Of a stretch of 64,000 bases of DNA, positions 1-44,318 are shown in pieces. The DNA lies in assembly GCA_024277525.1 (NCBI GenBank), contig JAJRUZ010000008.1, forward strand, positions 20,091-84,090. Direction: 5' to 3'. This stretch comes from a candidate division WOR-3 bacterium. Its GTDB lineage: Bacteria; Hydrothermota; Hydrothermia; Hydrothermales; JAJRUZ01. How positions within the stretch are numbered: position 1 is the stretch's first letter; every line of letters starts with the position of its first letter. The position numbers and the translations under genes are program-made. A model generated the notes under the pieces. It saw only the letters and a program-made list of their open reading frames with translations. It made no database searches and was not told the DNA's origin.

Positions 1-1076
1 CCTGTTTAAGAATATCTTCAATATTTTTCATATAAGAACCCATGAATTTTTCAACAATTTGTTCGGAAGGGAAAGCTTCCTTTCGCGGGGCACCCCATGG
101 CTTCTGCTCTATGACTCTCCCCTCTTTTACCTTTACCTTTTCAACTTCAGTTCTTTTAAAAATATTAATATAGGAATAAGCAGGTCTCTTAACTGCCTTC
201 TTTCTTCTCACATATTTCCTCTTAGGCGGGGGATTGTATTTTTTCAATAAATCAAGAGCGGTTAAGGGCGGCTCTATCAAAGTATCCTCACCCGGTACTT
301 TTATTTCCCTTACGGACCTCAATGCAAGACGAATATCCGCAATTTTATCAAGTAATGCTATTTCTTTTGCAATATCCTTGGGTACAGCAAGTGTAACAGA
401 GGAAACTTGTTCCGTTCCCGTTATTTCCGGCAGTTTTTCAAGAAATCCCTTTTTCTTAGCCTGAAAGGTAGGAGGAAGGGCAAGCATAGACTTTCCCACC
501 GCCAAAACCCTTAATCCCTTATATGTAATTGTGGTGAAAGAAGAAAATTTCCCTGCTGTTCTGTAAAGACCAGGACTCCTCAAATATTTTTTTATTTCAC
601 TTTCGGGAATAAATCTCCTTATCTCCTCGGTAGAGAAGGTAGCAATTACATCCACTTCATCACCGGGTAATATCAGTCCTCCTACACCCGAAACTTCATC
701 AACATGAATTGTAATTGCTCTGTATCCTTCCGGAATAAAGGATGAAAGAACGGTCCATGTTGTAAGCGGAATCAGAAGGTTTTTTGTAATCTGCTCTCCC
801 TTTTTTATATCAGTGATTGCAACAAGTCCTATCACATCTTCAATTCTTGTCACTGCAAGAGGCTCAATGTAAGGCTTCGGTATTTTCTGATACTCAAGCA
901 AATCCTCTGTTATAATTGTTCTTGCAGGAATGTCTTTTCTTGCTACCAAAACACTCTCAGGAGCAGCTTTCATCAATACCTTTCTTTCAACATCCTGAAG
1001 ATAGCTTATGAGTAAAAGGGAAGCAATGCCCGCAAGGGCAAAAGCAATTAAAAGCCTTCTTACATTTGGTCTCATT
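1..1076 (-). CDS. cpaB: Flp pilus assembly protein CpaB/RcpC (SAF domain), partial. ATG at 1076-1074; the ORF runs off the window start.
   Basis: Hand translation of the reverse complement gives a continuous ORF of more than 358 aa (MRPNVRRLLIAFALAGIASLLL...) with an N-terminal TM helix and the SAF-like motif VLVARKDIPARTIITEDLLE. It lies at the distal end of the tad locus. Confidence 0.6.
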
Positions 1077-1078
1077 TT

Positions 1079-3652
1079 TTAACCTCCTTTATAAATCTCA
1101 AGACCATAAGTATCCGAAATTAAATAATAGTCTCCCATTTTATTAACATCCTGAGCATTACCCGGGGTATCAATATGATTCAAATATGAAACATCCCCGT
1201 TTTCTTTTATCTCATATTCAATAACTCCGTATGCACCGCATATTGCAAACAACCTGTCTCCGAGGACTTTAAGTCTGTAAACAGGAAAACCCGGGTTAAT
1301 TCTCTTTCTTATCCTCGGAAAATGAGGAATACTCATATCAATCACTGCTAAACCTTCGTCTCCGAGGGCAAGGTAAGCGATTTTATTAAATGTCTCAATA
1401 TCAAGAATAGGCACATCAAATTCCGTAAGCTGGGAAATCTGCGAAAATACACCTCCCCTTAGGTCAAATACCCTAAGGGCTCCTGTTCTATCTCCTGCAA
1501 GAAGAAAGGAATTTTCAAGGACATCTATGGTAAGCACATCTCCTTTTATTCTTGTAAAAAATTTGGGATTTTTCTCTGAGATAAGTTCAAAAACTTCTAT
1601 TCCTCCCTCAAGATTTGCTGTAATTAAAAATCTTCCGACCCTTAATATATCGTATGTAGAGCCCTCCTGAGGTCTGTGTTCAAAAAACATCTTCGGTGAG
1701 TAAATATTTGAAACATCTATTCCCAATATTCCCGATGAACCCCCTGCAATATACAATATTTTAGCATCTCTTATGGGTAAAGCCCTGTATAATTCTCCGT
1801 ATGTCAGATAATAAGAAATCTCGGTAGGAGTTTCAAATCTGTAAAATCTGAAAGTCTCTATATAACCCTTCTCACCTACAAATATTCCGTCTTCGGAAAA
1901 GTCTAAGGATCTTATAATTTTCTTCGTTCTGATACTGTTTGTAAACTCGGGAACATCTTTCCCAACAAAGTATATAAAAATTCTGTCCCTTTTACCGTAT
2001 AAAAATATATAAGGATATTTGATATCAACAAAATATATGGATTCGGGTAAATCAATCTCATGTTTAAGAGCACCGGTTGTAATAGAATATACTTTTAATT
2101 TATTGCTTCCATCCGTTACATAGAAATTATTCTTTCCCACAACAAAATCACTCACAGGCGGTTTGAGTGATGCTATTCTATTCAAGTTTGCAAGTGTCTT
2201 TTCAAATTTATAAATCTTGCCCCTTATATCACAGATAAAGATTTCAGAGCCCCTTATTGAATAAAGTATCGGAGTAATATTTATTTTGTGTTCAATAATT
2301 TTTCCATCCAGGTCATAGATAAAGATACCGTTTTCCTGAAGTGCTCCGAACTTCTCTCCTAAGTTGAAAAGTTTAAAAACTTTTGCTTCTGTATTGATAT
2401 CAAAGTAAAAATTAAATGCACCGTTTTCGTATTTCAAACCTATAATCCCTTTATCCGTTGCCACAAAAATTTTATCTTTTACACTGATTATATCATTCAG
2501 TTTTCCTTCAATGGGATAAAAACCTTTTATAACCCCGACATCTTTTTGTGAAAGAATCCAGAAACCTCCTTCCCTTATTGCAGCCAAAACATTATCTTTA
2601 AATTTTAATATCCTGATAAATGTTCCTGAGAGGGGAACCTCTTTTTCTTTTTCCGGATTAAAAGGGGAGAAGAAGGAAATGAATCTGACACCCAATAATG
2701 GGTCGAGAAGATAAAGAACTTCTTTACTCATCACACCCGCGGAAACCAAGGAACCGAAACCTCCTATTGTTTTAATTTCTTCAAGGGAAGGAGTTTTGAG
2801 AACCGATATACCTGCTCTCCCGACAGACACTATAAGGATATTTCCGATTGCATTAAAATCATTTATCTGACCGATAAGCTGGGCACTTGAAACAACCTTA
2901 AAATCAGGATATCTCAGAAGATATAACCTTCCGTCCTCTGTTCCTGCATACACCTGAGACCCGTAAACCTGAAGACCCGTTATTATATCCTCGGGTATAA
3001 TTTCTTTTAAAACTTGTATAAAGGGCTGGGAAAATTTGCCGAGGTAAAGACCACCATCCCTTTTTCCGAATATTATGAGTGTATCAATAGCAAAGTATTT
3101 GGTTATCTTTTCGGGAAAGAAAAATTGATTTGTAAGTTTAATCTCTCCGCCTTTGAAAAATTTAATCTGAGCGAGAACAGAATCAGAAAGGAGAGCATAC
3201 AACCCTTGAGGTGCAATCTGAACAGAAGAAATGGGAAGGTCTAATTTAAGCTCCCCTTTTGACTTCACATTTTCTCCTTTAACCTCAAATATAGAAATAT
3301 ACCCATCTGATCTTCCCACATATATATAGGGTGGGATTGAAATAATTGATGTAGCATTTTTAACCTTTATTGTTTTCTTTTTTTCTTCGTCTTTTAAAGA
3401 GTAAACAATGACTCCTTCCTGTGAATCCAGAATATAAAGATAGTCACCTATAACCGTTAAGTCAAGGGAAATACCATCCGTAGGTATTTCAAGTTCTGTA
3501 AAAGGCTCAAGTGCATTTTCAACATTTATAACAGTAACTCCCCTTTGGGACACTTCAAATATATAATTACCGGACTGAACTGCTTTTATATAATCGCCCC
3601 CGGTTAAAGTTGATATGGTCTGTGCTATGAAAAACATCAAGAGCATATTCAT
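1079..3652 (-). CDS. Secreted repeat protein (signal peptide plus beta-propeller-like blades) at the tad locus.
   Basis: 857-aa ORF with an N-terminal hydrophobic signal (MNMLLMFFIAQTISTLTGG) and recurring blade-like segments (GYISIFEV, GRLYLLRY, YVTDGSNKLKVY). Confidence 0.45.
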   Translation of the reverse strand: MNMLLMFFIAQTISTLTGGDYIKAVQSGNYIFEVSQRGVTVINVENALEPFTELEIPTDGISLDLTVIGDYLYILDSQEGVIVYSLKDEEKKKTIKVKNATSIISIPPYIYVGRSDGYISIFEVKGENVKSKGELKLDLPISSVQIAPQGLYALLSDSVLAQIKFFKGGEIKLTNQFFFPEKITKYFAIDTLIIFGKRDGGLYLGKFSQPFIQVLKEIIPEDIITGLQVYGSQVYAGTEDGRLYLLRYPDFKVVSSAQLIGQINDFNAIGNILIVSVGRAGISVLKTPSLEEIKTIGGFGSLVSAGVMSKEVLYLLDPLLGVRFISFFSPFNPEKEKEVPLSGTFIRILKFKDNVLAAIREGGFWILSQKDVGVIKGFYPIEGKLNDIISVKDKIFVATDKGIIGLKYENGAFNFYFDINTEAKVFKLFNLGEKFGALQENGIFIYDLDGKIIEHKINITPILYSIRGSEIFICDIRGKIYKFEKTLANLNRIASLKPPVSDFVVGKNNFYVTDGSNKLKVYSITTGALKHEIDLPESIYFVDIKYPYIFLYGKRDRIFIYFVGKDVPEFTNSIRTKKIIRSLDFSEDGIFVGEKGYIETFRFYRFETPTEISYYLTYGELYRALPIRDAKILYIAGGSSGILGIDVSNIYSPKMFFEHRPQEGSTYDILRVGRFLITANLEGGIEVFELISEKNPKFFTRIKGDVLTIDVLENSFLLAGDRTGALRVFDLRGGVFSQISQLTEFDVPILDIETFNKIAYLALGDEGLAVIDMSIPHFPRIRKRINPGFPVYRLKVLGDRLFAICGAYGVIEYEIKENGDVSYLNHIDTPGNAQDVNKMGDYYLISDTYGLEIYKGG

Positions 3653-3653
3653 T

Positions 3654-4934
3654 TTACACCTCCTTTTTTTGTCTTAAATAAAGGGCAAGTATGCCTTCGT
3701 TTAATTTTGCCTTTTCACAGATGAATCTAAAATCTTCCCTAACTTTTTTTATTTCTTCACGGGTTTTTGAATTTACTATCTCTTTACTTATTTCTTCGAA
3801 TTTTTCCCATCTAAAGAAATTACCTGTAACTAATAAGAATTTGTCTTCAAAATCAACCTCAAAGTATTTAAGACCGAAATTTTTTGTTCTGAAATCGTAA
3901 AAATTACCCGGTTCAAATACATTGATAAGTTCTCCGTTTCTTATTCTGAATAATATATGGTCTCCGAATGAAGCACCTTTTACTTTATTCTCACCCTGAT
4001 CAAAGAATAAGATTGAGCCCTCTACAACACCTTCTCCTATATTTATTTTGGAAAACTCCCGGGTCAAACCCTGAAGAATCACATAAGGGTCTTCTTCGGT
4101 AAAAAGGTTTCTATCCAGATAAGAGTTTATAAAAGGGAATAAGATTGACCAATTGTATCCACCGCTTATAACCTGAAAACTCATTATACCCCATTTTTCG
4201 GGTGAAATTCTGAAAATTTTATAAAATAGGTTCGGTATTTTACCTTTTTCATAAAACTCATATATTTCCCAACTTTCGGGTTTATATCCTCCGGATTCCG
4301 GTATAAGAGAAGAAACATAATCCGAAAAATGAGGAGGTGAATAACTCACTTTTCTTTCTTCCGGGGTTGACAGAAACACAACTATTGCAGAAAGAAAAAG
4401 AAAGAGAGCAGATAAAGCAATTACAAAAAGAAAAAGAATTCTCCTTAAAGCATCCTTTCCTTCAAGTAAAGAGCCGGGTATCATGGACATGTAAACATAT
4501 CCCAATGTATCACCCAGGGTTGATAGGGCGGATTTAAAAACATATACTTTGTTCCCTTTTATTTTGAATTCATAACTTTTTAAATCAAAAGGGGCATCTT
4601 CCGGTAATTTGAATTTGGTCAAAATATTTTCGGTATTCGTATGAGCAATTATGGTTTTATCTTTTTGTATCAATGCTATTTCTTCTATTTCCCTATTTTC
4701 TTTTTTAATTCTGTAAATTATAGAATTCATTGTCATATCATCGCCTGTTTCCCAAGGAACTTTTATACTCTCTATTAAGCTGTTTGTAATGGCTCTTGCA
4801 AAATTTTCGGCATCCTTTGAAAGCCAACTGTATGTCTCATTCAAAATCCATCTTCCGAAAAAGTAAAGAAGAATAATCAGAAAAACCACGGAAATACTTA
4901 TACCGGTGATAATGAACCTTCTCCTGTTCATCAC
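3654..4934 (-). CDS. Membrane protein of the tad locus, unknown function (N-terminal TM, second TM mid-protein).
   Basis: 426-aa ORF in operon context; hydrophobic segments at about aa 8-28 and 165-190. Confidence 0.4.
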   Translation of the reverse strand: MMNRRRFIITGISISVVFLIILLYFFGRWILNETYSWLSKDAENFARAITNSLIESIKVPWETGDDMTMNSIIYRIKKENREIEEIALIQKDKTIIAHTNTENILTKFKLPEDAPFDLKSYEFKIKGNKVYVFKSALSTLGDTLGYVYMSMIPGSLLEGKDALRRILFLFVIALSALFLFLSAIVVFLSTPEERKVSYSPPHFSDYVSSLIPESGGYKPESWEIYEFYEKGKIPNLFYKIFRISPEKWGIMSFQVISGGYNWSILFPFINSYLDRNLFTEEDPYVILQGLTREFSKINIGEGVVEGSILFFDQGENKVKGASFGDHILFRIRNGELINVFEPGNFYDFRTKNFGLKYFEVDFEDKFLLVTGNFFRWEKFEEISKEIVNSKTREEIKKVREDFRFICEKAKLNEGILALYLRQKKEV

Positions 4935-5692
4935 CTTCTCCTCCTGAGTCTTTCTTCAACAACCGCAAGATTTCTTCTTACTTTTGTATTTTGGGGGTCA
5001 AGCCGCAGTATTTCACGAAAGACACTTCTGGCTTCTTCCAATTTCCCCTCGCTGTAAAGGGTTATACCTCTTTTGTAAAGTTCCTGAATTTTCGCTTTTA
5101 CATCTTCAACCTTTACTTCTTTTTTCTCCTTTTTGACTACTTTCGGAACCTTCTTTATCACCACCTTCTTTTTAACTTTTTCTTTCTTTACCACTTTCGG
5201 AATTTTTTTGTAATAATAATTTATCTTTTGATCTATTTCAGGATAAGCGGGATATACCTCCTTAATATCCAGACAAATCTTATAAGCAAGGGAGTAATTC
5301 CTTGTTCTCTCTGCTTTATTTAAAGAAAAATACAATTTTCTCAGAGTGTCAATGGTCCACATGCATTTCTGATAAAAATTCATTACATCGGGTTCATAAT
5401 AGAATTTCTCATACAGGAGTTTAATAAAATAAAGGGCGGAATCAAGTTCTCCGGATGTATAATTGGAAACAGCCTTTTCAAATAATTTTTTATCCAGATT
5501 TTCCCTGTTTAATTCTATATATCTATCCGCACTGAAAAGCAATTTTTCCCTTACCGGATTGTTTTCAGGATTTTCCTGCAGAAGTTCCGAATAAGTGGTA
5601 AGGGCATTTTTATAATCAGCGAGTTCCATATATAACTCGCCTTTTCTTTCCAGTCCCTGAGATATAATTATTAAAAAAATTAAGTATTTCAT
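4931..5692 (-). CDS. tadD: TPR-repeat protein, TadD-like, with a lysine-rich KKEK tract. Likely start MKYLIFLII, internal to the listed ORF.
   Basis: TPR-like helices (YSELLQENPENNPVREKLLF, ARSVFREILRLDPQN), a signal-peptide-like N-terminus, and position after tadC. Confidence 0.45.
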   Translation of the reverse strand: MKYLIFLIIISQGLERKGELYMELADYKNALTTYSELLQENPENNPVREKLLFSADRYIELNRENLDKKLFEKAVSNYTSGELDSALYFIKLLYEKFYYEPDVMNFYQKCMWTIDTLRKLYFSLNKAERTRNYSLAYKICLDIKEVYPAYPEIDQKINYYYKKIPKVVKKEKVKKKVVIKKVPKVVKKEKKEVKVEDVKAKIQELYKRGITLYSEGKLEEARSVFREILRLDPQNTKVRRNLAVVEERLRRRR

Positions 5693-5693
5693 T

Positions 5694-6599
5694 TTACATC
5701 CCTCCTCCGTAAAGTAAATATAAAACAAAAGGACCGAATAAAATTATAAAGATCGTCGGCAAAATTAAAAGAATTGTCGGGATAACAATCAAAACAGGTG
5801 TTTTTGCTGCCTTTTCCTCCGCTTGGTCCCATCTTTTCAGTCTTACCTCTTCCGCCAATGTTGCAAGTGTCTGGGTTATGGGGGCACCCAGTTCTTCTCC
5901 GTGTGCAATTGTTATTGCCACAAGTGTTAAATCCGGGTGTTGCGTTCTTTCCGCCAGGTCCCTGAGTGCCTGAGATCTTTTTTTACCGAGTCTTAACTCG
6001 GAAAGCATAAGTGAAAATTCTTCCTTTAAGGGACAGGGATGCATTGATTCGGTCACATATTGAAGGGCTGCATTAAATCCCAAGTCAGCCTGAACAGCAG
6101 TATTTAATTGATCAAGAGCATCCCCTAAATCTTTTTGAATTAAATAATGTCTTTTTTTGATCTCTCCGGATAAATTTATGTCTTTAAAAAAGAAACCGAT
6201 AAAAAGAAATACAAGGGAAAGAACAAGAGAAAAAGAGAAAGGAGCAGAGAATATTATAGTAAGAATTAAAAAGCTTATCATAAATAACACAAATCCGGAG
6301 ACAACCTTTTCTGTTAAAACCGCATCTATGCTCTTTCCCCTTTCACCCGCCATTTCCATTTTCATTTCCAGTGTTTTTAAATAATCCTCCGGAATAAACC
6401 TTTTTATACCCTTAACCACAAACTCAAAAAGAGGAGCAAGGGCAGAGACTATTTTGGATGCGAATTCAATCCTTGCTCTCCTCCTTCTTAACCTCTCAAG
6501 ACGGGATGAAATTGCGACTTCTTCGGGTGAGGGCAAAAAGGCAAGAACCAAATAATACACTGCAACAAAAGACAATATAAATACAAGTAATATTATCAT
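5694..6599 (-). CDS. tadC: Tight-adherence protein TadC (T2SS-F domain).
   Basis: 301-aa polytopic membrane protein, paralogous to the upstream TadB-like ORF, with a GspF-like cytoplasmic domain. Confidence 0.6.
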   Translation of the reverse strand: MIILLVFILSFVAVYYLVLAFLPSPEEVAISSRLERLRRRRARIEFASKIVSALAPLFEFVVKGIKRFIPEDYLKTLEMKMEMAGERGKSIDAVLTEKVVSGFVLFMISFLILTIIFSAPFSFSLVLSLVFLFIGFFFKDINLSGEIKKRHYLIQKDLGDALDQLNTAVQADLGFNAALQYVTESMHPCPLKEEFSLMLSELRLGKKRSQALRDLAERTQHPDLTLVAITIAHGEELGAPITQTLATLAEEVRLKRWDQAEEKAAKTPVLIVIPTILLILPTIFIILFGPFVLYLLYGGGM

Positions 6600-7432
6600 A
6601 TCTCTATTGTAATTATTTTTTTAATCCACAATGCAGCAATTAAGTCAAGTAAAAAAGCAACAAAGAGCATTATTATCCCCACTATGGTTTCCAGCATGGG
6701 GGCAAAAAGTTCGGGTTGCATGAGCCTCAAAAGAATTAAAAGAAAAAGGGGAAGAAGTGTTAAAACGATTGCTGATAATTTACCTTCAGCGGTAAGTGTA
6801 TCTATTCTTCTTTTAAGTCTTCTTCTTGCTTTTATCGTATCAGCAATACCTGATAAAACATCAACAAGTGAACCGCCCGTTTTTCTCTGCAAAAGAACTG
6901 CACTTGTAAAAATTTTAAGCTCCCTTGAGGGAATTCTATCTTGTAAATGTGAAAGTGCTTCATCAAGCGGGACACCGAGGGAAACCTCATCAAGCACCCT
7001 CTTGAATTCCGTAGAAATCGGATTAGGCATCTGTTGTGTTACAATTTTCAAACAGTGACTGAAACCGAGTCCTGCCTTTAATCCACTCACAATCAACCTT
7101 AAAGCCTCCTCAAGCTGGTCATTAAACTTTTCTATCCATTTATTCCTTATTGTATAAGCATATTGAGGGAAAAATGCTATTATAACTATTGCTCCGAGAG
7201 CTATAATAAATATTTTCATTCCCAAACCCTTTCCGAGAAACAAATAAGTCAAAATCGCAAATCCGAATAAAGCACGCAATTCAAGTAAAATAAAATTTTT
7301 AACGGGGTAATCCGATGGTTCAAGTTTTTTAGCAATACTTTTTATATAATAAATGAAAAAGTCCTCCAAGAAAATTATTATCATGTATATAGCAAATATT
7401 ATTGAAAGAATTATTAATACAATCTTCACCAT
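6596..7432 (-). CDS. tadB: Tight-adherence protein TadB (T2SS-F domain).
   Basis: 278-aa membrane protein with a T2SSF-like domain, directly downstream of the CpaF ATPase. Confidence 0.6.
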   Translation of the reverse strand: MVKIVLIILSIIFAIYMIIIFLEDFFIYYIKSIAKKLEPSDYPVKNFILLELRALFGFAILTYLFLGKGLGMKIFIIALGAIVIIAFFPQYAYTIRNKWIEKFNDQLEEALRLIVSGLKAGLGFSHCLKIVTQQMPNPISTEFKRVLDEVSLGVPLDEALSHLQDRIPSRELKIFTSAVLLQRKTGGSLVDVLSGIADTIKARRRLKRRIDTLTAEGKLSAIVLTLLPLFLLILLRLMQPELFAPMLETIVGIIMLFVAFLLDLIAALWIKKIITIEI

Positions 7433-9618
7433 ACCTTTTCCTCCACTCCCTTATAATATATATCCTGCGGGATTTTAAGACCTTTAATCTCAAACTCTTC
7501 ATGAACTTTCGGTCTTATCCCTGCTCCGACAAATTTCCCTATTATCTCACCCTTTTCACTCACCCCCTCCTGTTTGAAATAGAATATGTCTTGCATTGTA
7601 ATAATATTTCCTTCCATTCCCGTAATTTCGGAAATTTTTGTTACCCTTCTTTTTCCATCCCTCATTCTTTGAGTAAATACTATAAAGTCAATTGCTGATG
7701 CAATATAATTCCTTATTGCTGAGACAGGTAATTCGGTTCCTGCCATCAAAACCATTGTCTCCAGTCTTGAAAGTGTATCACGTGGAGAATTAGCGTGAAC
7801 CGTGGTTAATGAACCTTCGTGACCGGTATTCATTGCCTGAAGCATGTCAAGTGCCTCACCTCCTCTACACTCACCCACAATTATTCTATCCGGTCTCATC
7901 CTCAAACAGTTTTTTACAAGGTCCCTTATCGTAATCTCACCTTTGCCTTCAATATTAGGGGGCCTTGCTTCGAGTCTTACAACATGAGGTTGCTGTAATC
8001 TTAATTCTGCGGTATCTTCAACCGTCACAATTCTTTCATCTTCCGGTATAAAAGAGGATAAAACATTTAAAAGGGTTGTTTTACCGGAGCCTGTTCCACC
8101 TGCCACAATTATATTCTTCTTTGCTATAACACATGCCTTTAAAAACTCAACCATAAAATCGGCAATAGAGCCAAAATTTATAAGATCCTGATAGGAAAAA
8201 GGCTCTTTTCTGAATTTTCTTATGGTTATTGTAGGACCATCGATTGATACAGGGGGCAAAGTGATATTTACCCTTGAGCCATCAGGCAATCTTGCATCAC
8301 ATAAGGGATTTGCCTCATCAACCCTTCTTCCTATCGGTGATACAATTCTTTCTATCACAAGGCGCAACTGTGTCTCATTAAAGAATTTTCTATCGGTTAA
8401 ATAAATCTTCCCTCTTTTCTCTACATAAATTTTGTCCACCGCATTAACCATTATTTCGGTAATTTCAGGGTCTGCAAGCAGGTCTTCAAGCGGTCCGAGC
8501 CCCAGTATCTCCTTTATCATATCCTCTACAAATTTTTTCCTCACTTCCTGTGTAGGAAAAGGAATATCAAATTCGTCAAGTTTCTCTATAATGAGCCGTT
8601 CAACCTTTTTTCTTATTTCCTCTTTTTGAGCAGGAGAATCTACGGTTGCGGACAATTCGCCTGAAAGGGTCATCTCCTTTATTATATGAGCATGAATGAG
8701 TCCTTTAATCTCATGCGGAACTTCCTCCAGCTTTTCTTCAATCTCTATTTTGGCTTTTTCCATTAATTTTTCTTTTCTCTCATCAATAATTTCCTCCTTC
8801 TTTTCTTCTTCTTTTACCTCTTTTTCCTCTTTTTTCTTTCTCCTGAAAATTGAGAAGAAGTCTTTTTTGGTTTCTTTCCTTTTTCTTAAAATATCCTCCC
8901 TTTTTATTTCTCCTTCAATAAACTTGCAGATCTCTTTTATTTTTTCTTTAAAAACAGAGGAGAGTTTATCCTTACCTGCATCAAAGCCCAGGTCCACAAT
9001 CTGATTCACACTCTCGTCTTCGGGTAAAATAAAAAGTGCTTCTTTCTCAATAATTTCTTCAATTTCATTTAAAGGAATCCCTTCTTCTTTGTAAGAATTT
9101 ATGATAAATTCAATCTTCTGAGGGGGGTAATACCTCAATTTAAATACTTCTCTCAAATTTTTGGATTGTGCTATGGATAAAAAGTCATTTTTTAAAACAA
9201 CAAAAATGGTATCGGTAATATCAAGGAAATTCAAAACTTTTTCATCAACAATATGACCGCAGTCAAAGATTACATATTCATAATCATTTTCAACTTTTTT
9301 CAAAAAAGGGGGAACCATTTCATATTCCTTATCCCAGTTTTCTCCTGTTTTTGAAAATATAAGATGAAGTTTTGATGGATAAGAAGAATAAGGATAAATA
9401 TATTCTCCTCTGAATTTCTTATCTTTTTTAAAGGATGAAAGGGCTTCCCTTAAAGTTTTCCTTATTTCTGCTCCGAAAATGTAAGATAAATCTCCGTGAT
9501 TCTCTGCTTCAATTAAAAGGACATTTTTTTTATTCTGAGCCAATTCATACGACACAAGTGAGGCTAAGATTGATGTTCCGACACCTCCTTTTGTGCCAAT
9601 AAATGCAAATCTTTTCAT
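7426..9618 (-). CDS. cpaEF: Fused CpaE/TadZ-like ParA-type ATPase (N-terminal) and CpaF/TadA secretion ATPase (C-terminal).
   Basis: The N-terminus has the deviant Walker A of MinD/ParA/CpaE (FIGTKGGVGTS). A K/E-rich linker follows. The C-terminus has the VirB11/CpaF core: Walker A GGTGSGKTT, RLEARPPNIEGKGEITIRDLVKNCLRMRPDRIIVGECRG, and TGHEGSLTTVHANS. Confidence 0.8.
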   Translation of the reverse strand: MKRFAFIGTKGGVGTSILASLVSYELAQNKKNVLLIEAENHGDLSYIFGAEIRKTLREALSSFKKDKKFRGEYIYPYSSYPSKLHLIFSKTGENWDKEYEMVPPFLKKVENDYEYVIFDCGHIVDEKVLNFLDITDTIFVVLKNDFLSIAQSKNLREVFKLRYYPPQKIEFIINSYKEEGIPLNEIEEIIEKEALFILPEDESVNQIVDLGFDAGKDKLSSVFKEKIKEICKFIEGEIKREDILRKRKETKKDFFSIFRRKKKEEKEVKEEEKKEEIIDERKEKLMEKAKIEIEEKLEEVPHEIKGLIHAHIIKEMTLSGELSATVDSPAQKEEIRKKVERLIIEKLDEFDIPFPTQEVRKKFVEDMIKEILGLGPLEDLLADPEITEIMVNAVDKIYVEKRGKIYLTDRKFFNETQLRLVIERIVSPIGRRVDEANPLCDARLPDGSRVNITLPPVSIDGPTITIRKFRKEPFSYQDLINFGSIADFMVEFLKACVIAKKNIIVAGGTGSGKTTLLNVLSSFIPEDERIVTVEDTAELRLQQPHVVRLEARPPNIEGKGEITIRDLVKNCLRMRPDRIIVGECRGGEALDMLQAMNTGHEGSLTTVHANSPRDTLSRLETMVLMAGTELPVSAIRNYIASAIDFIVFTQRMRDGKRRVTKISEITGMEGNIITMQDIFYFKQEGVSEKGEIIGKFVGAGIRPKVHEEFEIKGLKIPQDIYYKGVEEKVW

Positions 9619-9622
9619 TGCT

Positions 9623-10921
9623 TCATTGTGTTTCTTTTAAGGTTTCAAGTACATAAAAATCATTTGTATAAGGATCCCAGAAGGCTTCAAGTCCTATACT
9701 TTCAAAAAAGGAGAAAGGAACATAGATTACCCCGTTTTCAACCTTTACTTCTGGTCTTATAGGATAAGCAACTCCGTCTCTTTCTATGGTAGAAGTTTCA
9801 ACGGAAAGATAAGTTTTCTTTTTCCCGAATTTAACCTCTGCCAGCTTTCCTTCCTCAACCCATTCATAGTCAATATTCAGTCTTTCTTTAAAGACCTTTG
9901 AGAGCTCAAAGTAAATTGTTCCATCAAAGGATTTGGTAGGAATATAGAAATCTTCCCTCTTCTCACCCCTGAAAATATGAATCTCTGCCGCCCCCCTTTC
10001 ATAAGGGATTACATAAGGTGTAACTATAAATACTAAGTCTTTTATCACATCGTCGTGTTTTATTCTCGTAAAAAACAACTTTCCGAGTATAGGAATTTTA
10101 CCCAGAATAGGAATTGAGGAGCGAAACTCTTGTTTTGTTTTTTTAATGAGCCCGCCTATTAATATGCTTTCTCCCGGAAAAACCTTTACCTCAACTTTTG
10201 CGTTATTTTTTCTTATTGCAGGAACAATGTATCCCCCGAAATTGACAGCATTTGTCCAATCAAGGTCAGAAACTTCTGGTTCAAGGTCCAACACAATGTG
10301 CCCCTCATCATCAAGCTTAGCCTTCAATTTCAACTTCACACCGTACTCCTTCCATTCTATACTTGCGGTTCCCATTGCTTGAGCTGTAATAATCGGTATT
10401 TCTCCGCCACTCAAAAATTCGGATGTTTTATCTTCAAGGACTACCAATGTAGGGTGTGATAAAATCTTAAGAAACCCTTTCTCTTCAAGAAAATGTAAGG
10501 TGCTTGAAAGATTGGTAATTCTTTTAATAGGACCTATATCAAGGGGATAAGTTTGAGGAATATTACCTTCTTCAAACCCTAATTCTTTCATCCAGTCCCA
10601 TCCATAGTCGCTATTATATGTCCTTTCCACCTCCAGGACCCACACATCCGCTCTTATTGTTTTAGGCTGGTAGAATTGGAGAGGGTCCCTTTTTTTAATT
10701 ACACATTCAATTTCCTGTTCTCCTTTATCCGTGAAAATAATTATATTTGTAACACCTTCCTTCATCGCATTAAGTAATACTTCCCTATCTGAAAGAAGAC
10801 GCATTCCCAGAATATCAGGATTACCTACTGCTACACTCTTTACAGGTCTTACAAATTTCAAAAGTTTGGAATATCCCTCATGTAAAAGGAGATAAGAGAA
10901 TAAGAAAATTTTAAGTATCAT
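9623..10921 (-). CDS. cpaC: Secretin (CpaC/RcpA family) with a C-terminal extension.
   Basis: Conserved secretin C-domain motif (SSIPILGKIPILGKLF...DLVFIVTPYVI) and an N-terminal signal. Confidence 0.75.
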   Translation of the reverse strand: MILKIFLFSYLLLHEGYSKLLKFVRPVKSVAVGNPDILGMRLLSDREVLLNAMKEGVTNIIIFTDKGEQEIECVIKKRDPLQFYQPKTIRADVWVLEVERTYNSDYGWDWMKELGFEEGNIPQTYPLDIGPIKRITNLSSTLHFLEEKGFLKILSHPTLVVLEDKTSEFLSGGEIPIITAQAMGTASIEWKEYGVKLKLKAKLDDEGHIVLDLEPEVSDLDWTNAVNFGGYIVPAIRKNNAKVEVKVFPGESILIGGLIKKTKQEFRSSIPILGKIPILGKLFFTRIKHDDVIKDLVFIVTPYVIPYERGAAEIHIFRGEKREDFYIPTKSFDGTIYFELSKVFKERLNIDYEWVEEGKLAEVKFGKKKTYLSVETSTIERDGVAYPIRPEVKVENGVIYVPFSFFESIGLEAFWDPYTNDFYVLETLKETQ

Positions 10922-11304
10922 TTTTCCTTAGCTTTTTCAAGATAGAAGCTGACAGAAACATTCTGCACCGCATTCACTTCTTTTGTGGTCTCTTTATATC
11001 CAGGAGCTATAAATTTTAATCGATACCTTCCGGGAGACAAAGTAATTTTACCCTTCCCGTTTTTAAAGGTATAAGGAGGTAAAGGGGAACCCACAATTAT
11101 TACTTTTACATCTTTCACAGGGTCAAAAGTTTTGGCATCCAGTAATTCAATTTCAAGAGAAACTCTTTTTACTTCGGGTTTTGCAGTTTCTGTGATTGTT
11201 TCTGTTGCTTCATATGTTCTGTATGGATCCTCCTCGGGGTTGTAATAGAAACAACCCCAGGATAATAGGATTATTAAAGGTAATAATTTTAAAGTTTTCA
11301 TCAT
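10918..11304 (-). CDS. Lipoprotein, first gene of the tad operon; Ig/carboxypeptidase-regulatory-like fold.
   Basis: Signal peptide plus lipobox-like LLSWGC; a GGAGG RBS immediately upstream. Confidence 0.4.
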   Translation of the reverse strand: MMKTLKLLPLIILLSWGCFYYNPEEDPYRTYEATETITETAKPEVKRVSLEIELLDAKTFDPVKDVKVIIVGSPLPPYTFKNGKGKITLSPGRYRLKFIAPGYKETTKEVNAVQNVSVSFYLEKAKEK

Positions 11305-11383
11305 TCCTCCCTCTTTTTAATAAGTCTTAAATTTTAAAAAAAATTTCCAAAAAAGTCAAATAAAAAAATTTTTTTTCTTAAAC

Positions 11384-11444: not shown

Positions 11445-11720
11445 ATGCGCGGAAAAAGGAAGGAACTTATCGGTGCGGTTGTTTCAAACAAGATGGATAA
11501 AACCGTCGTTGTGCTTGTTGAACGACGGGTTCGTCATCCATTGTATAAAAAGGAAATAAAAAAGAGGAAAAAATTTTATGCCCATGATGAAAATAATGAA
11601 TGCAGAATAGGTGATATTGTGCGAATAATGGAAACACGCCCCCTTTCAAAGCTCAAAAGATGGAGAGTTGTGGAAATATTAAAAAGGGCTCCGGGTTTTA
11701 GTGAGGAAAAAGAGAAATGA
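11445..11720 (+). CDS. rpsQ: 30S ribosomal protein S17.
   Basis: 91-aa protein with the conserved S17 core ([24 protein letters not shown]); first gene of the cluster. Confidence 0.9.
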
Positions 11721-12085
11721 TACAGCAGCAATCAAGACTTAAAATTGCTGATAATACCGGTGCACTTGAAGTTATGGTGATAAGGGTTTTGGGAGGAAGT
11801 GCAAGAAAATACGGTTCGGTAGGAGATATTTGCAGAGCAACTGTCAAAAAAATCGGAACAGGTTCACAGGTGAAGGAAGGAGAAAAGGTATGGGTCGTAA
11901 TTGTAAGAACAAAAAAGGAAATAAAAAGAAAAGACGGGTCCACAATAAGGTTTGATGACAATGCAGGGGTTATAATAGACCCTGCGGGTGAACCCAAGGG
12001 TACAAGGGTTTTCGGTCCTGTGGCAAGAGAATTAAGGGAAAAAAGATTTATGAAAATTGTTTCACTTGCTCCGGAGGTTTGGTGA
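11717..12085 (+). CDS. rplN: 50S ribosomal protein L14.
   Basis: [16 protein letters not shown]...IRFDDNA; overlaps the rpsQ stop by 4 nt. Confidence 0.95.
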
Positions 12086-12405
12086 TGGCTGCTAAGATTA
12101 AAAAAGGAGACCAGGTAATGGTGATTTCGGGTGATGATAAAGGGAAAATAGGAAAAGTTATAAAGGTCTTTCCGAAGAACCAAAGGGCTATTGTTGAAGG
12201 AGTCAATATTGTGAAAAGGCACAGAAGATTTGTAAGTGCTGACAGACCTCACGGAATAATTGAAATGCCTGCTCCTGTTCACATTTCAAACCTTGCTCTT
12301 GTTTGTCCGTCTTGTGGGAAAAGGACAAGGGTCGGGTTCAGATTCGAAGGAGATAAAAAAGTGAGATATTGTAAAAAATGCAATGACACGATAGATAAGG
12401 ATTGA
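12085..12405 (+). CDS. rplX: 50S ribosomal protein L24 with a C-terminal zinc-ribbon (CPSCG...CKKC) extension.
   Basis: [11 protein letters not shown]... KOW domain; the ATG overlaps the rplN TGA. Confidence 0.9.
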   Translation: MAAKIKKGDQVMVISGDDKGKIGKVIKVFPKNQRAIVEGVNIVKRHRRFVSADRPHGIIEMPAPVHISNLALVCPSCGKRTRVGFRFEGDKKVRYCKKCNDTIDKD

Positions 12406-12406
12406 T

Positions 12407-12976
12407 ATGGCGAGATTGCTTGAACATTATAAGAAAAATGTAATTCCGAAATTAATGAAAGAATTTAAATATAAAAATCCGTTTGAGGTCCCTAAAATAG
12501 AGAAAGTGGTTGTAAATGTAGGATACGGTGAAGCGGTAAATGATCCGAAATTAATAGAACTTGTTCAAAAAGAACTTGCTCAGATTACAGGACAATGGCC
12601 TTGTATAAGAAGGGCAAGAAAGCATGTTGCTGCATATAAGGTAAGAAAAGGAATGCCCATCGGTGTGAAGGTTACATTGAGGGGAAAAAGGGCTTACGAA
12701 TTCCTTGACAGAACAATAACATTTGCACTTCCGAGGGTAAGGGACTTCAGGGGATTAAAAAGAAATTCTTTTGATGGAAGAGGGAATTATAATTTCGGAC
12801 TCGAAGAACATATTGTTTTTCCGGAGGTGGATATAGATAAAGTGAAAGTTCAGTTCGGGATGGACATAGCAGTTGTAACTACTGCAAAAACCGATTATGA
12901 AGCATTAAGGTTACTTGAAGAACTCGGATTTCCGTTTGAAAGAAAAAAGGAGGTGAAAAGTGGCAAGAAAAGGTAA
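12407..12976 (+). CDS. rplE: 50S ribosomal protein L5.
   Basis: 189-aa protein with conserved L5 motifs ([29 protein letters not shown]). Confidence 0.95.
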
Positions 12977-13148
12977 ATTTATGAGATGGTTAATGTATGA
13001 ACCGAAATTTAAGGTCAGGTACAGGAACAGATGTAAGAGATGCGGAAGACCCAGGGGTTATATAAGGAAATTCGGTTTGTGCAGGATATGTTTCAGAGAA
13101 CTCGCTGTTCAGGGTTTGATTCCCGGTGTTAAAAAGGCAAGCTGGTAA
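12960..13148 (+). CDS. rpsZ: 30S ribosomal protein S14 type Z (zinc-binding); GTG start.
   Basis: 61 aa: [25 protein letters not shown]...GVKKASW. Confidence 0.9.
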
Positions 13149-13149
13149 A

Positions 13150-13545
13150 ATGGTAAATGATCCTATAGCGGACATGCTCATAAGAATAAAAAATGCTGTA
13201 ATGAGAAGAAAAGAGGAAGTTAAAGTACCCCATTCAAAGTTAAAAGAAAGAATTGCCCAGATTTTAAAGGATGAAGGATTTATTGAGGAATATAAAATTG
13301 CGGGAGAAGGTGTGAAAAAGGAAATAGTAATTCTTCCCAAGTACGACAATGAAGGGAATCCTGTTTTAACGGATGTAAGAAGGGTTTCAAAGCCGGGAAG
13401 AAGGATATATGTCAAAAAAGATAAAATTCCTTGGGTTAAAAACGGTACGGGAATTGCAATTATTTCCACCTCAAAGGGTGTTGTTACCGACAGGGAGGCA
13501 AGAAGATTAAAAGTGGGCGGTGAAGTCTTATGTGAGGTATGGTAA
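13150..13545 (+). CDS. rpsH: 30S ribosomal protein S8.
   Basis: MVNDPIADMLIRIKNA...; the internal start at 13150 fits better than the ORF-track start at 13126. Confidence 0.9.
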   Translation: MVNDPIADMLIRIKNAVMRRKEEVKVPHSKLKERIAQILKDEGFIEEYKIAGEGVKKEIVILPKYDNEGNPVLTDVRRVSKPGRRIYVKKDKIPWVKNGTGIAIISTSKGVVTDREARRLKVGGEVLCEVW

Positions 13546-13546
13546 A

Positions 13547-14098
13547 ATGAGTAAAATCGGCAAAAAACCGGTTTTGATTCCCGAGGGTGTAAATATAAGG
13601 CTTGAAGGGAGGAAACTGATCGTAAAAGGACCGAAAGGAGAACTTTCCCTTGAAATTCATCCTGAAATAGAACTTGAAATAGATGAAAAAGAAATAAGGG
13701 TTAAGAGAAAAAGTGATGAAAAGTTTGTCAGGGCAATGCACGGCACAACCAGATCCCTTATTAACAACATGATTAAAGGAGTAAAAGAGGGTTTTTACAA
13801 AGAGCTTCTTGTGGTGGGTACGGGATATAAGGCTGATTTAAGGGGAAGGGAGCTTATTCTTGATGTAGGGTATGCCGAACCTAAGAAATATATTTTGCCG
13901 GAGGGTATAAAGGCTGAGGTGAAAAAGGAAGGAGCAAATTTCAAAATCAGAATTGAGGGAATTGATAAGCAAAAAGTTGGACAAGTTGCTGCTGAGATAA
14001 GAAAAATCAGGGAGCCTGATTTATATAAAGGAAAAGGTATAAGATATGCTGATGAAGTGATTAAATTAAAACCGGGTAAAGCAGGAGTGGCAAAATAA
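13547..14098 (+). CDS. rplF: 50S ribosomal protein L6.
   Basis: [21 protein letters not shown]...; the start is internal to the listed ORF. Confidence 0.9.
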
Positions 14099-14475
14099 TG
14101 GAAAGGGAAGAAAAAGTATTAAGGAGAAAAAGAAGGCGTTTGAGAGTAAGAAAAAAGGTATTCGGAACACCTGACAGACCACGACTTTGTGTATATAAAT
14201 CTTTGAAGCACATATATGCACAAATTGTGATAGACCCCCCGCTCGGTCCTTGTAAGGTTCTAACAGGTGCTTCTACCCTTTCCCCTGAAATCAGAAATGA
14301 GGTCAAAAGATTAAAAGGGAAAATAGAGAAGGCAAAACTTGTAGGGAGATTAATAGCAGAAAAGGCTTTAAAATTAGGGATAAAAAAAGTGGTCTTTGAC
14401 AGAGCAGGATATAAGTATCACGGAAGAGTAAAGGCTTTGGCAGAGGGAGCAAGGGAGAAAGGACTTGAATTTTGA
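14098..14475 (+). CDS. rplR: 50S ribosomal protein L18.
   Basis: 125-aa protein with a basic N-terminus ([12 protein letters not shown]) and the conserved L18 C-terminus ([22 protein letters not shown]). Confidence 0.9.
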
Positions 14476-15621: not shown

Positions 15622-18258
15622 TTATATCACCACCTCTTTCTTTCTGGGATAAAGTTTTCCATATACCTTCTCCACATCATCCACAATTATCAAAATAAGT
15701 GCCTCCTTGTTTTCCGCAAGTTGAAAAGCACAGAAAATTGCCTCTTCTTCATCATCCATTATAAAAATCCTATCCTCACTTACTCCCTTTTCTTTAAGCA
15801 CATTTTTCATCATAAGCGGAACTTCTTTCGGCTTTCTTCCCCTTAAATCCCAATCATCCCTTATCACAAAATAATGAACATCAGAATTACCGGCAATTTC
15901 TGCCATCTTTCTTATATCAATATTCCTCCTATCTCCCGGTGCTCCTATTACCGCAATCTTAAACTCATAAGGAAGTGAATTAATTAAACTGAATATCATC
16001 TCATAAGCCTTCGGATTATGAGCATAATCAAGAATAATCTTCCATTTACCGATGGAAATGAAATTGGCTCTTCCGGGATTTTCATGAAAAGAGGAATGAA
16101 ATGTCCTTAATCCCTCTGCTATGGTCTCCAGGGGAACGCCGAGAAGATAAGTAATAAGAGAAGCAGCAAGAGCATTTTCTATATTAAACATTGCCCTTCC
16201 TTCAAAAGCACTCGGAATTTCACTTATATTTATTACCGGTATCCTCAAATCCCCTTTACAAAGGCATATTGTATCTCCGTCAAGAAGCATTCCTATTCCC
16301 CCTATTTGAAGATGTTTCTCAAAAAACTCATTTCTTTTCAAGCAAAAATAAGCCGGTTTTGCTATTGTATTTTTATGAAGATTTCTTACAACCTCATCAC
16401 ATGCATTTAAAACAGCAAAACCTTCTTTTTTAACAGCCTCTATGACCACGGATTTAACTTCAGCCATTTCTTCAACCGTTTCAATACCCCTTAAACCGAG
16501 ATGGTCCTCCGAGACATTTAAAACACACCCTATATCAGCATAATCATATCCCAGCCCTTCCCTTAAAATTCCTCCTCTCGCTGTTTCAAAAACCGCAACT
16601 TCAACAGATGGGTCCTTTAAGACAACTTTTGCGCTCCACGGACCTGTTGTATCTCCTTTAACAATCCTTTCATTACCTATGTAAATTCCCTCTGTTGTTG
16701 TAAAACCTACCTTCTTACCCGAAATTCTCAATATATGGGAGACCATTCTCACTGTTGTCGTTTTTCCATTCGTTCCTGTTATTGAAACAATCGGAATTCT
16801 CGAAGGTACCCCCGGAGGAAATAACATATCCAGGACGAACACTGCAACATTTCTGCTTTTTCCTTTTGACGGATAAAGATGCATTCTGAATCCGGGAGCA
16901 GCATTTACTTCAACAACTTTCCCTTTTATTTCATGAAGGGGCTTTGTTATATCCTTACAGATAAAATCAATACCCGCTATATCAAGCCCTGTTATCCTTG
17001 CAACCCTTTCTGCAAGTCTTAAATTTGAAGGATGGGCTATATCGGTAACATCTTCCGCTTCTCCACCTGTTGAAAGATTGGCTGATGTCTTTAAATAAAG
17101 AATCTCACCTTTCGGAAGAACAGAATCAAGGGTGTAACCCTTTCTTTTTAATATTTCATGAGTAATTTCATCTATTTTAATTTTTGTTAAAGGTTTCTCA
17201 TGTCCTATTCCCCTTCTTTCATCGCTGTTAATTTTTTCAACAAGTTCCCTTATTGTGCTTTTTCCATCTCCTATTACATGAGCAGGGGTTCTTCTGGCAC
17301 ATGCAACCGCCTTTCCGTTTATTACCAGAATTCTGTAATCTTCTCCTTCAACATGTTCTTCAATAATAACTTTTTTTGAATAATTCTTAGCATATTTGAA
17401 GGCTTCTTTTAATTCATCAAAGCTTCTTATATTGGTTGTGACTCCCTTTCCCTGATTTCCATCAAGGGGTTTGCAAACAACCGGAAACCCTATCTTTTCC
17501 GCAATCTCTTTTGCGGATTCGTAATCATAAACAACGCCTCCTTCGGGTACAGGAATTCCTGAATCTTTCAAAATCTTTTTTGTTATATCCTTATCACAGG
17601 CTATTTCAACAGCAATGTTTGATGTATTGTTCGTGGTTGTAGCCCATATTCTTTTGGAATATTTTCCGTATCCGAGTTGCACAAGATTTCCATCTTCCCA
17701 TAATCTAATAACAGGAATATTTCTTCTTTTTGCTTCATCAATTATTGATTGAGTCGAAGGACCGTATGCCCACTTTTCTCTTATCTCAAGTAATTCATTT
17801 ATATATGGTTTAATATCGGGAATCCCCCCGTCTATAATTTTTTCAACAATTTCAACAGCAAATTCTCCTGCTTTTTTACCTGCTTCTTCAACCACATAAG
17901 AGTAAATGATCTTATAAACACCTTTTTTCTTTTCACTTCTCGCCTTTCCGTATCCTGTTTCCATTTTAGCAAGACATTGAAGTTCAAGTGCAACATGCTC
18001 AACAACATGCCCCATCCATGTACCTTCTTCAACTCTTTTTAAAAACCCGCCCTCAAAGTCATAAGAACATCTATGGGAATAAAGAGTAGGAATTGTCTTC
18101 TCTATTCTCTCTTTAAAACCTTTTATTTTATTTGTGGGTTTATCTTCAAGTTCTCCTATATCAAGTGTCATACATATACAGGGTTTTCTTAAATGATAAA
18201 TATTCGGACCCCTGAAAGCCCTGATTTCAAGAATTTTCATATATTTAAACTTTTTCAT
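15622..18258 (-). CDS. cphA: Cyanophycin synthetase (ATP-grasp plus Mur-ligase domains).
   Basis: 878 aa. The N-terminal CphA-specific domain reads MKILEIRAFRGPNIY. An ATP-grasp core and a C-terminal Mur-ligase P-loop (ITGTNGKTTT) follow. It is adjacent to a cyanophycinase gene. Confidence 0.85.
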   Translation of the reverse strand: MKKFKYMKILEIRAFRGPNIYHLRKPCICMTLDIGELEDKPTNKIKGFKERIEKTIPTLYSHRCSYDFEGGFLKRVEEGTWMGHVVEHVALELQCLAKMETGYGKARSEKKKGVYKIIYSYVVEEAGKKAGEFAVEIVEKIIDGGIPDIKPYINELLEIREKWAYGPSTQSIIDEAKRRNIPVIRLWEDGNLVQLGYGKYSKRIWATTTNNTSNIAVEIACDKDITKKILKDSGIPVPEGGVVYDYESAKEIAEKIGFPVVCKPLDGNQGKGVTTNIRSFDELKEAFKYAKNYSKKVIIEEHVEGEDYRILVINGKAVACARRTPAHVIGDGKSTIRELVEKINSDERRGIGHEKPLTKIKIDEITHEILKRKGYTLDSVLPKGEILYLKTSANLSTGGEAEDVTDIAHPSNLRLAERVARITGLDIAGIDFICKDITKPLHEIKGKVVEVNAAPGFRMHLYPSKGKSRNVAVFVLDMLFPPGVPSRIPIVSITGTNGKTTTVRMVSHILRISGKKVGFTTTEGIYIGNERIVKGDTTGPWSAKVVLKDPSVEVAVFETARGGILREGLGYDYADIGCVLNVSEDHLGLRGIETVEEMAEVKSVVIEAVKKEGFAVLNACDEVVRNLHKNTIAKPAYFCLKRNEFFEKHLQIGGIGMLLDGDTICLCKGDLRIPVINISEIPSAFEGRAMFNIENALAASLITYLLGVPLETIAEGLRTFHSSFHENPGRANFISIGKWKIILDYAHNPKAYEMIFSLINSLPYEFKIAVIGAPGDRRNIDIRKMAEIAGNSDVHYFVIRDDWDLRGRKPKEVPLMMKNVLKEKGVSEDRIFIMDDEEEAIFCAFQLAENKEALILIIVDDVEKVYGKLYPRKKEVVI

Positions 18259-19034: not shown

Positions 19035-19047
19035 AAAATTAAATTAT

Positions 19048-19539
19048 ATGAGAAAAAAAATTGAATTTAAAATTTTATTCTTCGGTTATGTTATTTTTTT
19101 ATTTCTATCACTCCCCTTTGCCGGTCCTTTTGCAAGGTATTTAAGAAAAGAAGTTTTCGGACCCGATTTAATGGGAAAGATAGTTATAATATTTCTTTTC
19201 ATCGTTTTTTTGATAACCCTTTTTTTTATATTTAAAAACAAAGGATTTAAAAAATTTTTAATAAGTTTTTTAATTCTTTTATTTCTTTTTATCTTCAGTT
19301 TTTATGTAAAAACTCCAGAAGAGAAGTTACATCTTTTTGAGTATTTTTTACTGGGTATATTGTGTTATAAAAGTTTCAAAAATCCTTTTTTAATTATTTT
19401 TTTAATATTTACAATTGCATTAGCAGATGAATTTGTTCAATATTTGCTTCCGATGAGATACGGAGATTTAAAAGATGTCTTAAGTAATATAATAGGAGGA
19501 GGGGCAGGATTTTTAATATGTATTGTATTTAAAAAATAA
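19048..19539 (+). CDS. VanZ-like family membrane protein.
   Basis: Four TM helices and the C-terminal VanZ signature (LADEFVQYLLPMRYGDLKDVLSNIIGGGAG). The ATG at 19048 (MRKKIEF) is more plausible than the upstream start. Confidence 0.6.
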   Translation: MRKKIEFKILFFGYVIFLFLSLPFAGPFARYLRKEVFGPDLMGKIVIIFLFIVFLITLFFIFKNKGFKKFLISFLILLFLFIFSFYVKTPEEKLHLFEYFLLGILCYKSFKNPFLIIFLIFTIALADEFVQYLLPMRYGDLKDVLSNIIGGGAGFLICIVFKK

Positions 19540-37843: not shown

Positions 37844-37853
37844 AAGGTTTAAA

Positions 37854-43075: not shown

Positions 43076-43077
43076 TT

Positions 43078-44316: not shown

Positions 44317-44318
44317 TT

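Follow-up and report, generated by a model that had tools for sequence, protein, structure and literature searches.

A TadZA-type fusion ATPase in the Tad pilus locus of a candidate division WOR-3 bacterium

The 64,000-nucleotide (nt) stretch analyzed here (the window; contig JAJRUZ010000008.1 of assembly GCA_024277525.1, candidate division WOR-3, order Hydrothermales) encodes on its minus strand a 730-amino-acid (aa) protein, TadZA, in which a ParA/MinD-like ATPase domain of the TadZ/CpaE type precedes a TadA/CpaF secretion motor. The protein is a genuine TadZ–TadA fusion, and it very probably represents a TadZA-type hybrid ATPase encoded within a complete pilus locus of the Tad/Flp (type IVc) class; the parts of that locus present in the window include the secretin, RcpC/CpaB, TadB and TadC. 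The kind is already known, from a 2026 preprint in which the TadZA hybrid of tad locus 1 of Bdellovibrio bacteriovorus HD100 was described and tested (bioRxiv 10.64898/2026.07.08.737194) and from the JGI annotation of a family member (P0040) that names both halves. The TadZA architecture is neither rare nor undescribed; the window contributes a member from a further phylum, and the novelty implied by the original prediction, which had been made from the sequence alone, was overstated.

One reading frame for both ATPase halves

The gene and the parts of its product are arranged as follows.

Positions 7426..9618, minus strand: tadZA (TadZ/CpaE-type ParA/MinD ATPase domain plus TadA/CpaF motor), a single open reading frame (ORF) with Pfam matches and full-length homologues at 40–80% identity.
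Positions 8887..9618, minus strand: N-terminal ParA/MinD-fold domain (residues 1–244), from AlphaFold2 (AF2), Foldseek, hhalign and invariant alignment columns.
Positions 8719..8886, minus strand: K/E-rich linker (residues 245–300), from its composition, low predicted local distance difference test (pLDDT) scores and variability in the family alignment.
Positions 8503..8718, minus strand: helical N-terminal region of CpaF (residues 301–372), from helices at 302–372 in the AF2 model and a profile comparison with the CpaF structure 9e24.
Positions 7429..8502, minus strand: CpaF/TadA N-terminal beta domain and ATPase core (residues 373–730), from Pfam T2SSE, the CpaF structure 8rkd and sequence motifs.

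The reading frame runs uninterrupted for 730 aa from an ATG start, and Pfam assigns residues 1–206 to AAA_31/CbiA (the ParA/MinD family) and residues 373–652 to T2SSE (E 8e-66). When the fusion was searched against 5.8 billion proteins, the identical sequence was recovered together with full-length relatives at 62–80% identity, which come from NCBI, JGI, ENA and Logan assemblies and are labeled candidate division WOR-3 or Candidatus Hydrothermales. Many further homologues of 713–775 aa (40–46% identity) also carry both Pfam domains. The same architecture, recognized by a match to a hidden Markov model (HMM) of the N-terminal domain and by the presence of the motor Walker A, was found in 91 of the 120 best cluster representatives; in all 91 the ParA-like domain begins at residue 1–6, and the fused proteins align from one end to the other around a linker whose length varies. 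The linker of the window protein (residues 245–300) is 38% K+R and 34% E+D, varies across the family in sequence as well as in length, and coincides with a dip of the full-length AF2 model to pLDDT <50 (residues 251–297) between regions of higher score, so that the original description of one CpaE–CpaF polypeptide with a K/E-rich linker is borne out.

That a frameshift or a lost stop, introduced during sequencing or assembly, had joined separate cpaE and cpaF genes is effectively refuted: although indels would be plausible at the junction, with its low-complexity, A/G-rich sequence coding for K and E, and although the two genes are neighboring but separate in many genomes, the same single ORF occurs in the independent JGI, NCBI, ENA and Logan assemblies of the 62–80% relatives and in 91 of the 120 top clusters, and the linker, though variable, aligns across the family as a continuous in-frame segment. 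No merging frameshift, for which a check had originally been proposed, is indicated.

By sequence comparison the C-terminal half is a bona fide CpaF/TadA motor, normal and complete including the helical N-terminal region, in agreement with its earlier assignment as a CpaF/TadA secretion ATPase. It scores 222.5 bits against Pfam T2SSE (cut-off 24.9) and matches the solved Caulobacter CpaF (8rkd/9e24) with E 1e-126, far ahead of FlaI and GspE-like ATPases (1e-42 to 1e-44) and VirB11 (1e-37 to 1e-39). All four ATPase boxes are present: Walker A (GGTGSGKT, residue 507), the Asp box (ERIVTVEDTAEL, 528), Walker B (DRIIVGE, 577) and the His box (GHEGSLTTVH, 599). The family profile aligns to CpaF 9e24 starting at chain residue 68.

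The N-terminal half and the distribution of the fusion

Modeled alone by AF2 with 63 aligned sequences, the N-terminal domain adopts a ParA/MinD fold with high confidence (pLDDT 94.5, predicted template modeling score 0.92). Foldseek places it closest to the ParA-family protein 3ea0 of Chlorobium tepidum (template modeling (TM) score 0.81) and to MinD (~0.79), with MinD, BcsQ, FlhG and FleN structures together at ~0.7–0.8 and the solved TadZ of Eubacterium rectale (3fkq) at 0.68 (E 1e-9). The predicted ParA/MinD-like nature of this half is therefore upheld, for an ATPase domain only, but the fold by itself does not single out TadZ among ParA/MinD relatives. The Walker A motif reads GTKGGVGTS (KGGVGTS at residues 10–16), in which the signature lysine K10 is kept and the canonical P-loop lysine is replaced by threonine; D119, in a Walker B-like position, is invariant in the family alignment. 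In sequence, profile and fold alike, 3ea0 matches the domain best (E 3e-7, 1e-37 and the TM score above), and it resembles the domain in its similar length, in having no receiver domain and in its K-less Walker A (KGGDGGS); it differs in being a stand-alone protein.

Identity with TadZ/CpaE is assigned from matches to stand-alone CpaE proteins, from a common K-less Walker A and from gene position in tad loci. A search with the N-terminal domain only, which did not list the fused homologues again, returned one fragment and stand-alone proteins of ~395 aa that JGI names CpaE. Aligned by hhalign, the fused domain covers residues 128–370 of these proteins over 240 columns (probability 99.96%, E 9e-39), and their Walker A, KGGVGTT, lacks the lysine just as KGGVGTS of the window protein does. 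One such protein (P0145) is encoded between rcpC and cpaF, in the order flp-tadE-rcpC-[cpaE]-cpaF-tadB-tadC, and in unfused genomes the gene upstream of cpaF can be aligned to the N-terminal half of the window protein. No second tadZ gene was found among the inspected cluster genes of the window or of two fused loci (L085 and L086). The Walker A consensus given for TadZ, K/RGGxGxS/T, is likewise without the canonical P-loop lysine (bioRxiv 10.64898/2026.07.08.737194). Together, these comparisons support the N-terminal half as the ATPase domain of TadZ/CpaE without its receiver-like domain.

Several points weigh against reading the protein as a TadZA hybrid in a complete Tad locus. The profile of the N-terminal domain family scores 3ea0 at 133 bits and MinD at ~95 bits, and the solved TadZ 3fkq at only 46 bits, which makes an independent MinD/FlhG-like origin conceivable. 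Canonical TadZ has a receiver-like N-terminal domain that the window protein lacks: the ParA domain here starts at residue 1–2, and the stand-alone CpaE relatives have ~127 additional N-terminal residues. About 70 of the 91 fused proteins carry a canonical KGGVGK[ST], unlike TadZ; the K-less motif is kept in the WOR-3 branch, and the Omnitrophota and Bdellovibrionota fusions have the canonical lysine or an arginine at that position. The best NCBIfam match of the motor, TIGR03819 (the TadA family), reaches 337.6 bits and thus falls below the cut-off of 373.15 of that narrow model. The CpaF-domain tree described below was built by neighbor joining without support values, and the flp and peptidase genes of the locus are known from its relatives only, the source locus having been read as far as cpaB.

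The first three of these points favor a rival in which the N-terminal domain does not derive from TadZ, and is instead a MinD/FlhG/BcsQ-like ATPase recruited independently onto a CpaF lineage that accepts other modules such as FHA. The profile scores to FlhG and FleN also exceed that to the E. rectale TadZ, the best NCBIfam matches of the N-terminal half are BcsQ and MinD (CpaE_hom_Actino reaches just E 3e-6), and FHA-TadA fusions are nested within the same CpaF cluster. We nevertheless regard this rival as improbable. The sole stand-alone proteins recovered with the domain are K-less and annotated as CpaE, and the one example checked is positionally tadZ; the WOR-3 branch has the K-less motif in common with them; the fused loci inspected have no other tadZ gene; and the literature places TadZ itself in the FleN/MinD subfamily.

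The distribution of the fusion was surveyed in one genome per species, giving 80 loci. An initial count by tblastn of ~30 scattered genomes with the fusion proved wrong because single high-scoring segment pairs crossed in-frame stops between separate cpaE and cpaF genes; ORF tracing with Pfam left ~10 true fusions. Single tblastn segment pairs, and counts of matched query residues, can thus bridge adjacent same-frame genes over a stop and mimic a fusion. The true fusions belong to WOR-3 (L003), Omnitrophota (L006, L018), Elusimicrobiales (L038), an unclassified bacterium (L016), a ‘Deltaproteobacteria’ metagenome-assembled genome (MAG; L005), Pseudobdellovibrionaceae, Bdellovibrionales and Oligoflexia (L007, L014 and L010, respectively) and Eremiobacterota (L023). 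In the loci of Actinomycetota, Chloroflexota, Firmicutes, Acidobacteriota, Planctomycetota and most others, the genes are separate.

In the CpaF-domain tree every fusion falls into one cluster, which also holds the small FHA-TadA group. In this tree, which carries no support values, the clustering suggests a single ancient fusion event without establishing it. Like the window protein, the FHA-TadA fusions bear an N-terminal regulatory module on a CpaF of this cluster; theirs is the phosphopeptide-binding FHA domain, whereas that of the window protein is a ParA/MinD ATPase.

Some homologues have unusual architectures of their own. The FHA-CpaF proteins nested in the ParA-TadA cluster measure 553–587 aa and come from Chromatiales, Lentisphaeria, a delta-MAG, a gamma-MAG and Spirochaetaceae (L015, L026, L040, L047, L055). 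A stop-free frame of 1282 codons in a Candidatus Eremiobacterota MAG (L023:8771-12619) holds ParA-like (316–503), T2SSE (648–923) and T2SSF (1114–1239) regions and may be a TadZ–TadA–TadB triple fusion extended by ~300 residues at its N terminus, or else the product of faulty assembly. Proteins P0003, P0007 and P0010–P0027, annotated as CpaF, are 775–1184 aa long, lack a ParA domain and, at 715–1324 bits, outscore most fusions, which suggests tandem or extended T2SSE architectures; some of these proteins are named Chloroflexi.

The closest described counterpart is the Bdellovibrio hybrid, whose prediction the preprint credits to an earlier paper. In this hybrid a TadZ bearing a Walker A-like motif is joined by a flexible linker to TadA, and the TadZ-plus-linker part binds the polarity hub RomR (bioRxiv 10.64898/2026.07.08.737194). 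The window protein is likewise a single polypeptide of TadZ ATPase region, flexible linker and TadA. Two of the Bdellovibrionota fusions (L007, L014) align with the window protein over the whole length of the latter and the third (L010) from residue 106, with ~40–44% identity in the best segments, and all three lie in the same CpaF cluster of the neighbor-joining tree, which was made without support values and without the HD100 protein. They differ in having KGGVGKS, with the canonical lysine, where the window protein has KGGVGTS, and in their gene neighborhoods; the RomR partner and a predatory role are known for Bdellovibrio only, and a membrane protein and a beta-propeller protein are additions of the WOR-3 lineage. 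Compared with the two-gene TadZ/CpaE and TadA/CpaF systems of Aggregatibacter and Caulobacter, both halves have a homologue in the corresponding stand-alone protein, and adjacency of tadZ and tadA is usual there; here, however, one polypeptide is made and the TadZ receiver-like domain is gone.

The Tad locus and its continuation in relatives

The fusion gene lies in a row of nine genes, all on the minus strand and in the order originally given: a 128-aa lipoprotein-like protein, secretin, the fusion, TadB, TadC, a tetratricopeptide repeat (TPR) protein, a 426-aa membrane protein, an 857-aa beta-propeller protein and cpaB. Apart from tadZA, its features are as follows.

Positions 11331..11359, minus strand: promoter-like site (TTGACT-17-TAAAAT) ahead of the first gene, within the divergent intergenic region; a consensus match only.
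Positions 10918..11304, minus strand: lipoprotein-like protein, 128 aa, first gene of the cluster; its CarboxypepD_reg-like match is weak and below the cut-off, and it is found in close relatives only.
Positions 9623..10921, minus strand: secretin of the RcpA/CpaC type; Pfam T2SS-T3SS_pil_N, Secretin and Cu_amine_oxidN1.
Positions 6596..7432, minus strand: tadB, T2SSF platform protein (Pfam T2SSF, E 3e-20).
Positions 5694..6599, minus strand: tadC, T2SSF platform protein (Pfam T2SSF, E 2.5e-18).
Positions 4931..5728, minus strand: TPR protein in the TadD position; matches Pfam TPR families and is conserved in close relatives only.
Positions 3654..4934, minus strand: 426-aa membrane protein, a lineage-specific orphan, syntenic in the related loci L001 and L086.
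Positions 1079..3652, minus strand: 857-aa beta-propeller protein, lineage-specific, with weak, sub-threshold LVIVD/WD40-like matches.
Positions 1..1075, minus strand: cpaB/rcpC (SAF and RcpC domains), cut by the left edge of the window; 71% identical to a 366-aa SAF and RcpC protein of L001.

The genes are tightly spaced: the ATG of the fusion lies 4 nt past the secretin stop, and the ATG of tadB overlaps the fusion stop (ATGGTGA). Promoter and terminator scans gave site counts not above those in shuffled sequence, and Rfam and tRNA scans of the window gave no matches.

The classical tad order, as in the Aggregatibacter and Caulobacter loci, contains the block secretin-tadZ-tadA-tadB-tadC-TPR. 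By sequence assignment this block is in canonical order here as well, and what is shifted is the remainder, with rcpC/cpaB, flp, tadE/F/G and tadV following tadD rather than preceding the secretin. The original description of the whole locus as non-canonically ordered thus applies to these moved genes and not to the core. Gene order is fluid within the fused family, since a distant fused relative (43% identity) is arranged differently again (flp, peptidase, cpaB, tadB, tadC, TPR, secretin, tadZA).

As originally stated, the window itself yields no pilin or prepilin peptidase: no Flp-like ORF was found in it, and the polytopic ORFs of 100 aa or more include no A24 peptidase. The one small polytopic candidate for a peptidase in the window (18985–19539) was rejected as VanZ-like. 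As a feature of the locus, however, the absence is probably an effect of the window edge, because the left edge cuts cpaB and the equivalent genes of relatives (L083, L086) start just beyond it. Two syntenic relatives were compared, one a 403-kb JGI contig and the other the Candidatus Hydrothermales genome GCA_039630575.1; a metagenome scan with the CpaB fragment alone had found nothing, and a two-sequence alignment query recovered the relative’s contig. Their core cluster proteins are 63–83% identical to those of the window, the lipoprotein and the TPR protein about 50–65%. Past cpaB, both continue with a 460–500-aa polytopic protein, two Flp pilins, a TadE-like and a TadG-like protein, a small lipoprotein, three to five further flp genes and an A24 prepilin peptidase. 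The Flp pilins show the G/xxxxEY motif (...G/QAAVEY, ...G/AAVVEY). At their far ends (L083:16742-20862; L086:19400-22568), the loci carry the 3–5 tandem flp paralogues, the A24 peptidase and then a 989-aa secreted M4/M36 metalloprotease with NIDO domains.

Four proteins of the window locus (the 426-aa and 857-aa proteins, the TPR protein and the first lipoprotein) have no detectable counterpart in other fused tad loci beyond close relatives. The 857-aa protein was originally singled out as atypical, and this stands: its homologues occur only in WOR-3/Hydrothermales relatives, in the same position in both loci inspected (L001, L086). The 426-aa protein matches no Pfam or NCBIfam family and had only three matches among 1.84 billion representative proteins; its layout is a transmembrane segment, an extracytoplasmic domain, a second transmembrane segment and a cytoplasmic domain. 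In a distant fused locus, a 441-aa protein of like layout is encoded after tadZA (L085:11713-13038), without detectable sequence similarity to it. The Tad secretin, too, has an additional feature, a Cu_amine_oxidN1-like domain at its C-terminal end (residues 332–423, E 4e-8) that is kept in relatives; we know of no such domain in classical RcpA/CpaC.

Proposed function and neighboring features

A mechanism may be proposed from work on Caulobacter, Aggregatibacter and Bdellovibrio and from the motifs of ParA/MinD proteins. The C-terminal CpaF/TadA half would form a hexameric motor on the TadB/TadC platform, whose genes directly adjoin that of the motor (tadB overlapping its 3′ end, then tadC), and would drive polymerization of Flp pilins through the RcpC ring and the secretin; by analogy with Caulobacter, it may also retract the pilus. 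Where the genes are separate, TadZ/CpaE is the ParA/MinD-like hub by which motor and machine are recruited and put in position, and its ATPase domain, the N-terminal module, could act similarly here. The flexible charged linker would tether this module to the motor and set a 1:1 ratio, making separate recruitment of TadA by TadZ superfluous, and the N-terminal domains would encircle the motor hexamer at that ratio. From the K-less P-loop (KGGVGTS), ATP binding with poor hydrolysis is predicted, as reported for TadZ.

A machine of the same parts might also serve another purpose, namely as a Tad-like device for contact-dependent attack or secretion (as in Bdellovibrio, or the Kil system of Myxococcus) in place of an adhesive pilus, with the propeller and the neighboring metalloprotease as effectors or tip components. 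The motor groups with homologues from Bdellovibrionota and Omnitrophota, in which Tad systems have been linked to predation or parasitism; the secreted M4/M36 protease of the relatives directly follows the peptidase gene; and lineage-specific envelope proteins lie within the operon. We nonetheless consider this function very unlikely: a predatory lifestyle is not indicated for the lineage, the only WOR-3 isolate in culture has been described as rod-shaped, non-motile and piliated, all standard pilus parts are present when those of the syntenic relatives are counted, and a shared cluster in a tree without support values tells little of function.

For the hybrid ATPase of a Tad pilus, the wider meaning lies in the family more than in the single instance, which is of small import in itself and brings a thermophilic candidate phylum into the range of the TadZA architecture. 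Bdellovibrio is not alone in having the fusion, which occurs in at least 91 sequence clusters from several phyla, and so widespread a natural fusion argues, as circumstantial support, for direct and stoichiometric contact between TadZ and the motor. In cryo-tomography of Caulobacter, CpaE was not placed and was proposed as a possible contributor to the outer cytoplasmic ring. It is conceivable, although we hold it to be rather doubtful, that the receiver-less fusions of WOR-3/Hydrothermales, Omnitrophota, Elusimicrobiota and Bdellovibrionota form a distinct, anciently fused Tad subtype, that their obligatory 1:1 tether amounts to ‘Rosetta-stone’ evidence for TadZ as the outer cytoplasmic ring round the CpaF hexamer, and that the Hydrothermales branch gained the membrane protein and a double beta-propeller module. 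The compact TadZA versions of thermophiles would be convenient for structural work.

Beyond the tad operon, across the divergent intergenic region, a row of ribosomal-protein genes on the plus strand (window positions 11445–14475) begins at S17 and, by comparison with L001, ends at L18, followed by a GT4 glycosyltransferase gene; with these two boundaries, the S10-spc cluster is broken at both sides. In L086, the tad locus adjoins a gene for a major facilitator superfamily transporter instead of the ribosomal row. Further on (15622–19034, minus strand) a cyanophycin synthetase gene (878 aa) adjoins that of an S51 cyanophycinase-like peptidase (259 aa), and the VanZ-like membrane protein mentioned above is encoded on the opposite strand. 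Finally, a long same-strand row at ~29600–45400 (minus strand), with a lower G+C content of 24–30%, encodes a WecA-like glycosyltransferase 4, a Wzy-like polymerase and a polysaccharide flippase and is probably a surface polysaccharide cluster.

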